Shown here in pieces: positions 1-5,236 of a DNA stretch of 5,236 nt. Positions within the stretch are counted from its first letter, which is position 1. Each line of letters starts with the position of its first letter. The stretch comes from a virus (Duplodnaviria > Heunggongvirae > Uroviricota > Caudoviricetes), in the IMG/VR virus record IMGVR_UViG_2698536392_000006; one strand, 5' to 3'. The position numbers were made by a program, and so were the translations under genes. The notes beneath the pieces are model-generated. The model saw only the letters and a program-made list of their open reading frames with translations, was not told where the DNA came from and did not search any database.

Positions 1-225
1 AATAGCAGAGAGCTTCGTGAAAACGATAAAGCGTGACTACATCAGTATCATGCCCAAACCAGACGGGTTAACGGCAGCAAAGAACCTTGCAGAGGCGTTC
101 GAGCATTATAACGAATGGCATCCGCATAGTGCGCTGGGTTATCGCTCGCCACGGGAATATCTGCGGCAGCGGGCTTGTAATGGGTTAAGTGATAACAGAT
201 GTCTGGAAATATAGGGGCAAATCCA
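1..225 (+). mobile_element. IS2 (IS3 family) 3' portion, partial at window edge; right terminus (IRR) ends ...GGGGCAAATCCA at 225
   Basis: The encoded C-terminus (...[31 protein letters not shown]) matches my recollection of IS2 InsD (OrfB). The terminal sequence TGTCTGGAAATATAGGGGCAAATCCA matches the IS2 right end as I recall it. Nucleotides 1-225 are about 96% identical to the reverse complement of 4907-5131. Confidence 0.85.
2..214 (+). CDS. insD: IS2 transposase InsD (OrfB), C-terminal fragment; 5' end lies outside the window
   Basis: The frame is open from the window edge ([13 protein letters not shown]...) to TAG at 212-214. The integrase-core C-terminal motif [18 protein letters not shown] is typical of IS3-family OrfB. 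The ORF track start at 17 is an internal GTG. Confidence 0.85.
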
Positions 226-348
226 CCCGACCAGCTCGTCAGGCGTCAGATTTTCGTTGACCATAATCTGCTGTAGACGGTGAACAATATCCATCAGCTT
301 GATATTTTTAGTGTTATGTTGCGGTATCTCGCCTGGTATTCCGTGCAT
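226..348 (-). pseudogene. 5' remnant (41 codons, MHGIPGEIPQHNTKNIKLMDIVHRLQQIMVNENLTPDELVG...) of an unknown gene truncated by the left IS2
   Basis: ATG at 348-346 overlaps the TAA stop of the upstream DUF3850-like gene (TAATG), the same coupling pattern seen elsewhere in this operon. The frame runs uninterrupted into the IS2 terminus at 225, giving the chimeric track ORF 139..360. Confidence 0.4.
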
Positions 349-752
349 TATCCAAGCCACCCGTTTTGCTTTGCACTCTCAATCTGTTCATCTGAATAGT
401 TCCATGCTCCATCCGTGGCAACCATTGCCCCGCCAGACATCCCCGTCTCTGGTTCATACATAACAGCAAGGCCGAGCTGATGCATAATTTCATGATTAAT
501 TCTGAATACCAGACCACGCTCACTAAGTTCTTTCCAGTTCACAATCTCATATGCGCTTGTATTAAGCAGCTCAATACTTAGCAAGACATAATCTTCCAGC
601 CAGTCTGACAGGTCAGTAACATCTGTTATCCGGGCTTCAACCTTTCGCCCCGTAAACACACCCTGCACCCATTCATGCAAAATCAGCGTGTCCCCGCGCT
701 CATAATTACGGTCATTTTTCCGAAACTCTGCACGTTTCTTTCCTTCCAGCAC
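348..752 (-). CDS. DUF3850/ASCH-like (PUA-fold) protein with an uncharacterised C-terminal extension; the 5' end appears frameshifted, so the annotated GTG start is probably not the native start
   Basis: The translation GKKRAEFRKNDRNYERGDTLILHEW...GRKVEARITDV fits the ASCH/DUF3850 pattern as I recall it. The same frame continues upstream of the GTG as HEVKLHAKYFDLV, the expected N-terminal motif, with no in-frame ATG. An SD (GGAG) plus ATG lies at 799 in the +1 frame. Confidence 0.55.
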   Translation of the reverse strand: MLEGKKRAEFRKNDRNYERGDTLILHEWVQGVFTGRKVEARITDVTDLSDWLEDYVLLSIELLNTSAYEIVNWKELSERGLVFRINHEIMHQLGLAVMYEPETGMSGGAMVATDGAWNYSDEQIESAKQNGWLG

Positions 753-3084
753 AAGGTCGAAATATTTTGCGTGCAGCTTTACCTCGTGAATTTTGCCATG
801 ATGTCCACTCCATTACTGTTGAGAATCCCGGCCACTCATCAGTGACCGGATACGTGAATTTTTTCCCGTCATAATTTACGGTCGCGCCACGCGCCAGCGC
901 CTCAAGTTCCCATCGCTGAGGCCAGATGCCGTTCTGAGCAAGGTCAACACGGATACGGGTAATTTGCATACGCTCCGACCGGGTCAGCCTGGCCGATGGC
1001 GCTATTTCATTCGGTTTTAACGGGCTTCCGTTTCTTTGCTGACGGTTTGGTGTTCTCAGGCCGTGTTTTAATGCGCCCCTGAGCGCCCTCACGACCTCCG
1101 GGTCATTCCATTCGATAACACCGTCATCAACCAGATTAAGCACGGCTGCGGCGTGCTCAGAAGGTGTGGGAGCCGGTAACGAAGTATCACCACCGGTGAG
1201 CTTTCCACAGTTATTGACAGGACTCCGAGGCGCGGCGATGCCGCTTTTTAAAGTCAAAGGCTCCACGACCGGAACTTTCGGCACAATGCGCCAGTCCGTC
1301 GTTCTGGTGATATGAATATGACGCGCGCCGAGATGCGGCGCGTAAATGCCGACCACTCTCTCGACTTCTTCCTCGTACTCGTTAACTTCATCCGACGGGC
1401 TACGGGCGACTCTGACAGTCTGGCAATCGCGCGGAACATTTGCCCCACCCTGCGCACTGATATACAACGCAAAATCGCCACTGTCTGCGGCAGTGCGTGC
1501 AGCCTCGACGCGTTCGTCAAACTCATCAGCAATGCTGACGCCGCGAGGCAATTTGCGTAGTTCACGGTAAGCCCCCATTGTCGGCAGACCAACCGTTTTA
1601 AATTGCGGGATGCGCCACGTTGACGCCCATGCAGTAACAGCCGCGGCAGTATCTTTCAGAGGTCTGCCGGTATCGTTATCGAGCTGACCATCCAGTGCAT
1701 AGCCGTCGATGTTTTTTGAGATGTATTTCGCGATATACCCCGCAGCACCGCCCCGATTAAGGTGTTTTGCCTGAAAACGGTTTCGCGCAGCTCCTCTTTC
1801 GTCGCCATCCTCTTTGAGCGCATAGCGACGCATGATTTCGATAATCTGGTTACGCTGGCGCGGATTACAAAAAAGCATCATATGCCAGTGCGGCGTTCCG
1901 TCGTGGTGTGGCTCGACGACACGCAAACCGTAGACCTGTAAATCATTATCCTTGAATGCCGTGCGCATCAGGCTCCAGATACGGCAGAGATAACGCTGCG
2001 CATCCTTTGGATTAAATGCCTCATCGTTCCAGCCGTGATTTAGCTGGACGGTTTTACTTTCGCCTTTTCCAACCTGACGTGTCTGGTGATACTTTGACGG
2101 CGCGGTCAGCGTGATAAACATCCCCACATCACCCTCTGCTGCGGCGTAACGCTCAATACCGGCAATGGTGTTCATCAGCTCCATCCGGCGAATTTCAGGA
2201 TTAGAAATACTGCCCATCACCTTACTGATAAGGTCGATGCGCTCGCCGGTTTCCCTGTTTTCGAGATCACACGATTTAAGAAATTCCAGATTTGCCTGGC
2301 GGCGTGCACGCACATCACGAATGGCATGTTTACTGGCATAAGGAGAACGGTCTTTATTGACCTCCCCGACAGCAATCAGTAACGCCTCATGCCAGCGCAT
2401 ACGCTGGCCTTTAAGCTGACTAATCCACCACTCATCGTTAAACAGACGGGCAATGGCAGAATATGCCTGCCTCGTGGTCATCTGCCCTTTACGGTATTTT
2501 TTCCAGTAGAGAGGGGAAATATTGAAAGCTCGTGCAGCGCCAGCAACATGACCATACAGATGCGCCTGTGCCTCATCCGTAAACAGCGATTCTTTCTCGC
2601 CATGCGCATCCATCCAGGCATCGCAGAGTTCCTCATACATCATGAAAAGCTGTGATGAGATACGGGCGGCAAACTTTTTCAGCTCCTTGTCATTCATTCC
2701 AGGCAAACGCGCATAATGGTCACGCTCTGCCAGAAACAGCAACGACGCGTCGGTGTTCATTTCATGGCGCTGATTCACACGCTCAATGCGCGGCCATAAA
2801 CGACGCTGAAAAGTGGATGTGAGGAAATAAAACCCGTGCACCGGGCTTTTATTGCGCCGGATGTAGTCATAGCGTGAAGTAAACAGCGAGCGCAAAAAAT
2901 AAGGCAGGCGGTTAATCGTGGATAAAACACCTTGCACCTGACGCATCTCGTCACGTGTAAGAGGTCTTTCGCGCCCGACAGCCTCGCGTGGCGCGTTCCA
3001 TGCATAAGCACCAGTAAACGCCTTACCGGTGCCTGCGGCAAATGCTGACGGAGGGACAAAACGCCCTGAGGCTTTAACGGCCAT
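712..3084 (-). CDS. A: Phage P2 gpA-like replication initiation protein (rolling-circle HUH endonuclease, Rep superfamily)
   Basis: HUH motif (H-W-H) is encoded at 1882-1890. The paired catalytic tyrosines in GYIAKYISK (Y-x3-Y) are encoded at 1735-1737 and 1723-1725, as in phiX174 gpA and P2 A. Size is about 790 aa from ATG 3084 (the track's 804 aa starts at an upstream TTG). Position at the end of a B...A operon matches P2. The 3' end at 712 may be artificially extended by the frameshift at 791-794. Confidence 0.85.
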   Translation of the reverse strand: MAVKASGRFVPPSAFAAGTGKAFTGAYAWNAPREAVGRERPLTRDEMRQVQGVLSTINRLPYFLRSLFTSRYDYIRRNKSPVHGFYFLTSTFQRRLWPRIERVNQRHEMNTDASLLFLAERDHYARLPGMNDKELKKFAARISSQLFMMYEELCDAWMDAHGEKESLFTDEAQAHLYGHVAGAARAFNISPLYWKKYRKGQMTTRQAYSAIARLFNDEWWISQLKGQRMRWHEALLIAVGEVNKDRSPYASKHAIRDVRARRQANLEFLKSCDLENRETGERIDLISKVMGSISNPEIRRMELMNTIAGIERYAAAEGDVGMFITLTAPSKYHQTRQVGKGESKTVQLNHGWNDEAFNPKDAQRYLCRIWSLMRTAFKDNDLQVYGLRVVEPHHDGTPHWHMMLFCNPRQRNQIIEIMRRYALKEDGDERGAARNRFQAKHLNRGGAAGYIAKYISKNIDGYALDGQLDNDTGRPLKDTAAAVTAWASTWRIPQFKTVGLPTMGAYRELRKLPRGVSIADEFDERVEAARTAADSGDFALYISAQGGANVPRDCQTVRVARSPSDEVNEYEEEVERVVGIYAPHLGARHIHITRTTDWRIVPKVPVVEPLTLKSGIAAPRSPVNNCGKLTGGDTSLPAPTPSEHAAAVLNLVDDGVIEWNDPEVVRALRGALKHGLRTPNRQQRNGSPLKPNEIAPSARLTRSERMQITRIRVDLAQNGIWPQRWELEALARGATVNYDGKKFTYPVTDEWPGFSTVMEWTSWQNSRGKAARKIFRPCAGRKETCRVSEK
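1211..1240 (-). other. Candidate P2-type ori / gpA nick region inside the A coding sequence
   Basis: The minus strand reads CATCGCCGCGCCTCGGAGTCCTGTCAATAA. P2 ori is known to lie within gene A, and this sequence resembles my recollection of the P2 nick region. This is unverified. Confidence 0.3.
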
Positions 3085-3349
3085 GTGAGCCAAAAGCCTT
3101 TGAACAACGCCTGCTGAGTTGCTCAACCTGCGCGTTTAAATCGGCAAAAGATTTTGCGCTTCCGGTCAGAATATCGTGATGCATCAGGCCGGAAACGAGC
3201 TGGCTTAATTTCGGGTAATAACCAACCACCGCCAGCCATTCCTGACCGGCGTTTTTACCGCTTTCCGCTCTCTTTTTCTCGTGGAGAATAAACTGAAAGC
3301 TGTCACTGGTAACGACATAACGTTCGCCAATTTCAATACGAATACTCAT
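3074..3349 (-). CDS. Hypothetical protein, 91 aa (P2 orf83-like by position)
   Basis: The ATG start at 3349 overlaps the upstream TGA (ATGA). The 3' end overlaps the A start by 11 nt. Assignment is by synteny only. Confidence 0.55.
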   Translation of the reverse strand: MSIRIEIGERYVVTSDSFQFILHEKKRAESGKNAGQEWLAVVGYYPKLSQLVSGLMHHDILTGSAKSFADLNAQVEQLSRRCSKAFGSHGR

Positions 3350-3570
3350 GCCGTTCTCCGGTAATGTTTGTTTTTTGCTTCAAAGACTGACTGACAGGAA
3401 ACACAACGCGTGGCTGACGGATAAGCCGCACGACGGGCAGCAGGTATTGGCGCGTCACACTCTTCGCAAACCAGCGCAGAAGCACCGCAATGTTTTACCC
3501 TTGCCGCGTTAATCTGGCGCTCCAGTAATTCAGCCTGTTGTTCCTGAATAAAATCTACGTTGTCCGGCAT
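3346..3570 (-). CDS. TraR/DksA-family C4 zinc-finger protein, 74 aa (P2 orf82-like)
   Basis: The translation contains C-x2-C-x17-C-x2-C (CEEC...17 aa...CVSC), the canonical DksA/TraR zinc-finger spacing. The start overlaps the upstream stop as TAATG. Confidence 0.8.
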   Translation of the reverse strand: MPDNVDFIQEQQAELLERQINAARVKHCGASALVCEECDAPIPAARRAAYPSATRCVSCQSVFEAKNKHYRRTA

Positions 3571-4906: not shown

Positions 4907-5236
4907 TGGATTTGCCCCTATATTTCCAGACACCTGTTATCACTTAACCCATTACTGGCTTGCTGCCGTAGATATTCCCGTGGCGAGCGATAACCCAGTG
5001 CACTATGCGGATACCATTCGTTATAATGCTCGAACGCCTCTGCAAGGTTCTTTGCTGCCGTTAACCCGTCTGGTTTGGGCATGATACTGATGTAGTCACG
5101 CTTTATCGTTTTCACGAAGCTCTCTGCTATTCCGTTACTCTCCGGACTCCGCACCGCCGTGTTCTTCGGTTCAAGTCCCAACATCCGGGCGAACTGGCGT
5201 GTTTCATTAGTCCGGTAGCATGAACCATTATCCGTC
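4907..5236 (-). mobile_element. IS2 variant, 3' portion, partial at window edge; right terminus (IRR) abuts the prophage DNA at 4907
   Basis: The plus strand from 4907 reads TGGATTTGCCCCTATATTTCCAGACA, the reverse complement of the IS2 right end. It shows about 8 mismatches in 225 bp against the left copy. Confidence 0.85.
4918..5235 (-). CDS. insD: IS2 transposase InsD (OrfB) variant, C-terminal fragment; 5' end lies outside the window
   Basis: The frame is open from the window edge ([40 protein letters not shown]...) to a stop at 4918. It shows amino-acid differences from the left copy (H to Y, R to Q, C to S). Confidence 0.85.

Follow-up and report, generated by a model that had tools for sequence, protein, structure and literature searches.

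Locus and question

On the minus strand of the window (the whole 5,236-nt stretch of DNA analysed), a Shine-Dalgarno motif and an ATG lead into a frame of only six codons, the DUF3850-like gene body behind them has no ATG, and gene A reads on through the same place to a later stop. The questions were whether a single missing A explains these anomalies, as the sequence-only reading had proposed, and whether such a loss is a real mutation or a sequencing error.

The window covers the early region, with the replication genes, of a P2-like (Peduovirus) prophage; these genes lie on the minus strand, and IS2 ends inverted relative to each other stand on either side. The order on that strand is a gpB-like gene, DUF2732, DUF5405, TraR/DksA zinc-finger, DUF5405, gene A (3084-712), DUF3850/ASCH and a small ORF that runs into IS2; the genes adjoining gene A match Peduovirus genomes. 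One IS2 copy end (1-225, plus strand; inverted-repeat arm I1; IS2 transposase according to PGAP) lies downstream of the early operon. The second (4907-5236, minus strand; located by inverted-repeat comparison and PGAP) is inverted, lies upstream of the gpB-like gene and is missing from the corresponding position in clade H strains. Strains 2013C-4830 and 2012C-4227 of E. coli O165:H25 differ from the window only by two substitutions in one IS2 copy. The small downstream ORF (139-348, minus strand) starts with an ATG that overlaps the DUF3850 stop (TAATG), and its 3' end enters the IS2 copy; it is 69 aa in the window vs 68 aa in clade H and the intact relatives. Lying directly after the ASCH gene, it may have lost translational coupling through the defect of that gene.

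Deletion site

The A4 run (791-794, minus strand), a one-base deletion site at which relatives have A5, was defined by direct reading and by comparison with relatives. Upstream of it GGAG (808-811, minus strand), the Shine-Dalgarno motif of the orf91/DUF3850 gene, is followed by 8 nt (807-800) and ATG 799-797; then come GCA AAA TTC ACG AGG TAA, with the stop at 781-779. The orphaned start (779-799, minus strand; direct reading and translation) thus consists of ATG, five codons and TAA (MAKFTR). The positions given earlier for the motif, the gap, the ATG, the A run and the dead end were all correct on the minus strand. The motif is kept as GGAGTGG in nearly all of 58 IMG/VR relatives; the ATG equivalent to 799-797 is the DUF3850 protein start in relatives, and the TAA equivalent to 781-779 ends gpA in the TCA/A5 parent form (vB_YpM_46, Yu5).

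From 812 on (WSGHHGKIHEVKLHAKYFD...), no stop interrupts the DUF3850 frame, which reads ...GKIHEVKLHAKYFDLVLEGKKRAEF... across the site; from 812 down to GTG 752, no ATG, GTG or TTG was found in it. It is therefore a frame without ATG, as had been noticed, the first canonical start being GTG 752. In-silico addition of one A gave a 150-aa protein (MAKIHEVKL...) and a gpA ending ...TSWQKFTR at TAA 781-779, both of which had been predicted; the extension of gene A, put at 23 codons in the sequence-only reading, is in fact 22 (790 vs 768 aa). Both anomalies follow from a single indel at the A run, as the repaired translations and the reading of the relatives bore out. A protein exactly like the repaired 150-aa one occurs on 187 contigs elsewhere; with so many exact matches and the extra base in all examined relatives, the one-indel pattern is far beyond chance.

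Gene A

Gene A (712-3084, minus strand; 790 aa), the P2 gpA replication endonuclease, was assigned by Pfam Phage_GPA (PF05840; E = 1.1e-123, model positions 1-321 of 321) and by alignment with P2. Residues 1-761 are identical to P2 gpA at 742/761 positions (98%) with no gaps; this comparison, together with the adjoining genes, confirmed a P2-like prophage. The motif GYIAKYISK is kept at residues 449-457, with the catalytic tyrosines Y450 and Y454 of P2 gpA present. The P2 origin of replication lies within gene A (1211-1241, minus strand), the 31-mer around the annotated nick site being identical to P2 and the nick base being 1226.

The frame ends ...MEWTSWQNSRGKAARKIFRPCAGRKETCRVSEK at TGA 714-712, the distant stop to which gene A had been said to read on. 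Residues 762-790 (codons 801-715) form a 29-aa tail after T761, composed of SWQ and NSRGKAARKIFRPCAGRKETCRVSEK, that is without counterpart in P2 gpA; the last 26 of these residues come from reading the DUF3850 gene out of frame. The normal C-terminus (...MEWT or ...MEWTSWQKFTR, each before a stop) is lacking, and PGAP labels gene A a pseudogene, 'missing C-terminus'. A gene A-ASCH fusion was considered as well and was ruled out, the gpA tail being in the third frame, not in the ASCH frame.

The gpA of P2, Wphi and P37 finishes in ...MEWT, its TGA stop overlapping the start of orf91 (ACA TGA TGG), and TGA or TAA stands at this P2-type stop in most IMG/VR relatives. A minority, including vB_YpM_46, the Yu5 prophage and the window, has TCA instead of the stop, and gpA is seven codons longer, to the TAA inside the ASCH gene. 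Because the lineage of the window already had the TGA to TCA change, as in the plaque-forming vB_YpM_46, the intact parent gpA is deduced to be 768 aa and not 761; the 7-aa extension is tolerated in this viable phage. With the catalytic tyrosines, all 761 conserved residues and the origin intact, gpA may still be functional, its tail notwithstanding.

DUF3850/ASCH gene

The body of the DUF3850/ASCH + DUF7415 gene (348-796, minus strand), the homologue of P2 orf91, is an intact ORF that has lost its ATG. Residues 4-76 of the repaired protein correspond to positions 1-77 of Pfam DUF3850 (1e-17), and matches to ASCH (2e-10) and DUF7415 were also obtained; PDB 3IUW aligns from residue 3 (5e-13), and in this solved homologue the N-terminal strand belongs to the domain. 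The product started at GTG 752 is missing DUF3850 model positions 1-15. As the DUF3850 model, the 3IUW alignment and the starts of the homologues cover the segment in question, the conserved domain includes the lost N-terminus. An in-frame usable start for the ASCH domain is missing; only ATT 791 or the truncating GTG 752 is left, and the ASCH protein is likely lost or nearly lost. The ASCH ORF in clonal complex 119 (CC119) has no additional stop codons, which would count against this loss, but the lineage is too young for the point to weigh.

PGAP begins the DUF3850 CDS at ATT 791 (147 aa; CDS 6310-6753 of L001 = window 791-348), and 147-aa products with the ATT start are listed as WP_032208018.1 (clade A) and WP_047087441.1 (clade H). 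These RefSeq entries are probably annotation rescues of a start-less gene. Neither the repaired ASCH protein nor gpA had a match among the NCBIfam profiles, and no function information was found in the literature on DUF3850 and P2 orf91.

A5 and A4 in relatives

The 761-nt region found a full-length match in 25 phage records; over this stretch each is one base longer than the query, apart from Wphi, which is five longer. By direct reading, vB_YpM_46, Yu5, P2 and Wphi have ATGGCAAAAATTCAC at the site, P37 has GCTAAAATT with the same length kept, and bR_120 likewise has one more base than the window. Of 5426 complete E. coli genomes, 4 contained the 41-nt A4 form and 340 the 42-nt A5 form, matched full length; in IMG/VR, the A4 form had 0 matches vs 58 for the A5 form. 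The A5 form gives ATG GCA AAA ATT... (MAKIHEVKL...) and the earlier gpA stop.

No intact relative with A4 and the long gpA was found among the phage, E. coli and IMG/VR relatives. The retrieved homologous proteins all begin MAKIHEVKL or MMAKIHEVKL, two products of the A4 allele itself excepted, and a start at GTG 752, which would have made the downstream gene normal, is thus not seen in any of the others. A4 as the ancestral state was ruled out: it is found in one clone only, and the longer form occurs in P2, Wphi, Yersinia phages and hundreds of unrelated E. coli. Because A4 is limited to that clone while relatives hold one base more, it is, judged from this distribution, the derived state.

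Occurrence and origin of the deletion in CC119

A4 was seen only in STEC CC119 (O165:H25, O172:H25). The RefSeq E. coli set holds 4 of the 13 closed CC119 genomes, and further carriers, many short-read assemblies among them, were found by exact-protein look-up; the carriers are strains A1, A2, H1 and H2 of PMC10132054, together with 88-3510, 88-3001 and JNE072929, all of CC119. All CC119 loci checked (10/10) carry A4. The exact look-up of the 790-aa gpA in a large assembly collection (15 billion proteins; the index lists 111 blocks) placed the extended protein on 84 contigs.

The same prophage also bears IS2 insertions at lineage-specific sites and a cox frameshift. A4 is common to clades A and H, the IS2 insertion sites differ between them and cox is intact in clade H only; because both clades share A4 despite these differences, the deletion predates their split. 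In clade H the integrase and C genes, too, carry annotations as intact. On the evidence of these genomes A4 is a fixed, vertically inherited deletion in CC119, neither a sequencing error nor a phase switch.

The history to which we assign a probability of about 0.9 is that the P2-like prophage of the CC119 ancestor lost one base (A5 to A4) in a single event, which shifted both frames and was then inherited vertically. In the parent phage, gpA would have stopped at TAA 781-779, and the ASCH gene, served by its own GGAG, would have started at ATG 799, the stretch from this ATG to the last base of the gpA stop measuring 22 nt. The path would comprise two steps: a harmless change of the gpA stop to Ser (TGA to TCA), creating the 22-nt gene overlap, and the deletion of an A inside this overlap. 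As the deletion falls after ATG 799 and before TAA 781-779, both frames were shifted together. Ribosomes starting at the intact SD-ATG would stop after six codons; those translating gene A would pass the former stop and read 26 out-of-frame ASCH codons to TGA 714-712, the tail past the P2 end amounting to 29 aa. The predicted outcome is an ASCH protein lost or nearly lost and a gpA that ends in a foreign basic tail, at a time when IS2 insertions and other frameshifts were already dismantling the prophage.

Alternative explanations

If A4 were a homopolymer error made in sequencing or in assembly, the site would really read A5 and both genes would be intact. The four A4 genomes of the RefSeq set are without exception CDC PacBio RSII assemblies (4/4), 2012C-4227 being PacBio-sequenced (PMC4683243), and PacBio errors favour homopolymer deletions; against this, a run of 4-5 bases is not error-prone, and A4 is also present in JNE072929 (AP026759), a Unicycler assembly of Illumina and MinION reads (PMC10132054), in draft JHMM01000093 and in the Logan contigs SRR14750085, ERR433393, SRR19862540 and SRR12377539 (string verified). 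Since A4 is found in PacBio, Illumina/Nanopore hybrid, draft and Logan assemblies, the mutation is real. Strain 95-3192 (CP027362), a CDC assembly of the same accession series, has one base more than the query across the region, as other A5 genomes do, and therefore counts against a systematic error; the repaired 768-aa gpA on the backbone of the window was absent from the 15-billion-protein collection, against the 84 contigs that encode the exact frameshifted form. A sequencing error is thus very improbable. Of the two possibilities raised earlier, an inactivating mutation in a decaying prophage or a homopolymer error, the former stands as to the reality of the mutation and the latter falls; inactivation of gpA itself is a deduction. 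The reversible counterpart of a real deletion, in which the A run would be a slipped-strand switch toggling ASCH and gpA, has in its favour a change of homopolymer length exactly at the overlap of a gene start and a gene stop. Homopolymer tracts of contingency loci are typically 7 or more bases long, and the present tract of 4 bases (5 in the parent) is far below them; moreover, the CC119 sequences examined are all A4, no A5 revertant protein was found on the same backbone, and other lineages are uniformly one base longer. Phase variation has, accordingly, hardly any likelihood.

The deletion could also be real and the ASCH protein still be expressed by recoding, either through initiation at ATT 791 or through tRNA-Lys slipping back by one base (-1) on GCA-AAA-U once translation has begun at the SD-ATG. 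In favour of this, neither the SD nor the ATG is damaged, and a tRNA on AAA at 793-791 would pair without mismatch after moving to AAA at 794-792; PGAP, for its part, places the start at ATT, and the downstream ORF is intact. Initiation at AUU, however, reaches 1-2% of that at AUG even where the ribosome-binding site is good, and E. coli has only two confirmed AUU starts (10.1101/063800); GGAG sits 16 nt upstream of ATT 791. As to the slip, there is no X XXY YYZ heptamer, the sequence G GCA AAA U permitting a single-tRNA slip on A-AAA only; no downstream RNA structure was found (815-730, minus strand; MFE -13 kcal/mol, z-score +0.85, 163/200 shuffles fold as well). The out-of-frame layout is not conserved but a recent accident in one clone, its relatives being in frame (A5). 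Recoding is therefore considered unlikely, though less so than an error or a switch. A -1 slip from SD-ATG 799 would remake the exact wild-type MAKIHEVKL... ASCH protein in a fraction of ribosomes, which is equally doubtful; if it did occur, the CC119 allele would be a low-expression variant and not a null, and the RefSeq 'intact' call would be correct, though not on the grounds on which it was made.

Significance

The single deletion in the CC119 ancestor is ordinary pseudogenisation in a cryptic prophage, a known kind of event and not novel biology. Of the two prophage genes affected, one serves replication and the other is accessory and not essential; to our knowledge, neither gpA nor the ASCH gene has a virulence or defence function in this context. 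The A4 site is a clean, platform-independent marker of STEC CC119. For annotation, caution is advised with WP_032208018.1 and WP_047087441.1, which are best taken as rescues; outside annotation hygiene, the significance is small.

Comparison with known systems

The P2 gene A/orf91 junction (AF063097) resembles the window in gene order, in near-identical sequence, in gpA (98% over 761 aa) and in the identical origin 31-mer. P2 orf91 has the same GGAG and the same ATG as the orphaned start and continues GCA AAA ATT; P2 has TGA and A5, whereas the window has TCA and A4, hence a gpA longer by 29 aa and an orf91 without start. The C-terminal part of P2 orf91 is another and a shorter one (match ends at query position 521).

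Closer to the window are Yersinia phage vB_YpM_46 (NC_055845) and the Yu5 prophage, with 99.7-99.9% identity over 761 nt and the same TCA variant. In both, gpA ends ...SWQKFTR with a 22-nt overlap with the DUF3850 start, and both differ from the window by A5; for Yu5 (99.9% over 761 bases) the one-base gap in the A run is the whole 0.1% difference. ASCH/PUA-like proteins (PF04266, PF12961, PDB 3IUW) match the repaired protein from residue 3-4 onward, but the latter has an extra C-terminal DUF7415, and the copy in the window is without a start codon. The present prophage shares the single-base indel, IS2 insertions at lineage-specific sites, the frameshifted cox and the pseudogene flag with the frameshift pseudogenes that occur in the cryptic prophages of IS-rich STEC; compared with them, the only oddity here is that one indel damages two genes by way of the 22-nt overlap.

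Start-less DUF3850 gene
In the RefSeq/PGAP annotation, the DUF3850 reading frame of the A4 allele (one A fewer than in the relatives at window 791-794) is called as an intact CDS of 147 aa on the minus strand, opening with ATT (window 791-348; 6310-6753 in the clade A CC119 locus L001). The product is entered in RefSeq as WP_032208018.1 and WP_047087441.1, and is on record for 89 contigs; the ATT is probably an annotation rescue rather than a genuine start. A second, independent path to a start-less DUF3850 gene is a deletion at a repeat site in a different P2-like prophage (Logan SRR33631806): 68-69 nt were lost between two AAAATTCACG direct repeats (L076 2959-2968, corresponding to window 862-853 and 794-785), the SD and ATG of the DUF3850 gene are likewise gone, and gpA has 747 aa, with the C-terminus ...DGKKFTR before the stop.

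Rearrangement and decay around the early region
The 4.7-kb early-region segment is flanked by two IS2 ends in inverted orientation (window 1-225 and 4907-5236; arms 96% complementary). CP027325 and CP013029 differ from the window only by two substitutions, at 5085 and 5211, both in the upstream IS2 copy; the window therefore comes from a strain very close to these, or from another assembly of them, and exactly matches neither record. Both window insertions are absent from clade H CC119 strains, where the downstream 313-aa gene is broken by another IS2; the prophage has therefore received at least three separate IS2 hits. Beyond the window, the prophage cox is frameshifted in clade A (2013C-4830, 2012C-4227), whereas it is intact in clade H (L001 1-23 vs clade H locus L004 1003-1359), which is further lineage-specific decay. 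One A4-carrying contig set (L078 1-977, Logan SRR12377539) was identical to the window (100%) only downstream of window 2775; upstream of this point a DNA cytosine methylase gene was found, and gene A was N-terminally truncated, with 700 aa left. This junction reflects either one more rearrangement, carried by some of the strains, or a join made in the assembly graph.

Comparison with P2
The origin nick-site sequence of P2, in the GCGCCTCGG/AGTCCTGTCAA context, is kept without change inside gene A (window 1211-1241, minus strand), with the nick at window 1226. At window 800-802 (minus strand), TCA stands in place of the gpA stop of P2, a TGA overlapping the ATG of orf91; this variant is common to the window, vB_YpM_46, Yu5 and 4 of 58 IMG/VR relatives, and in intact phages it makes gpA 7 aa longer and lets its end overlap the following gene by 22 nt.
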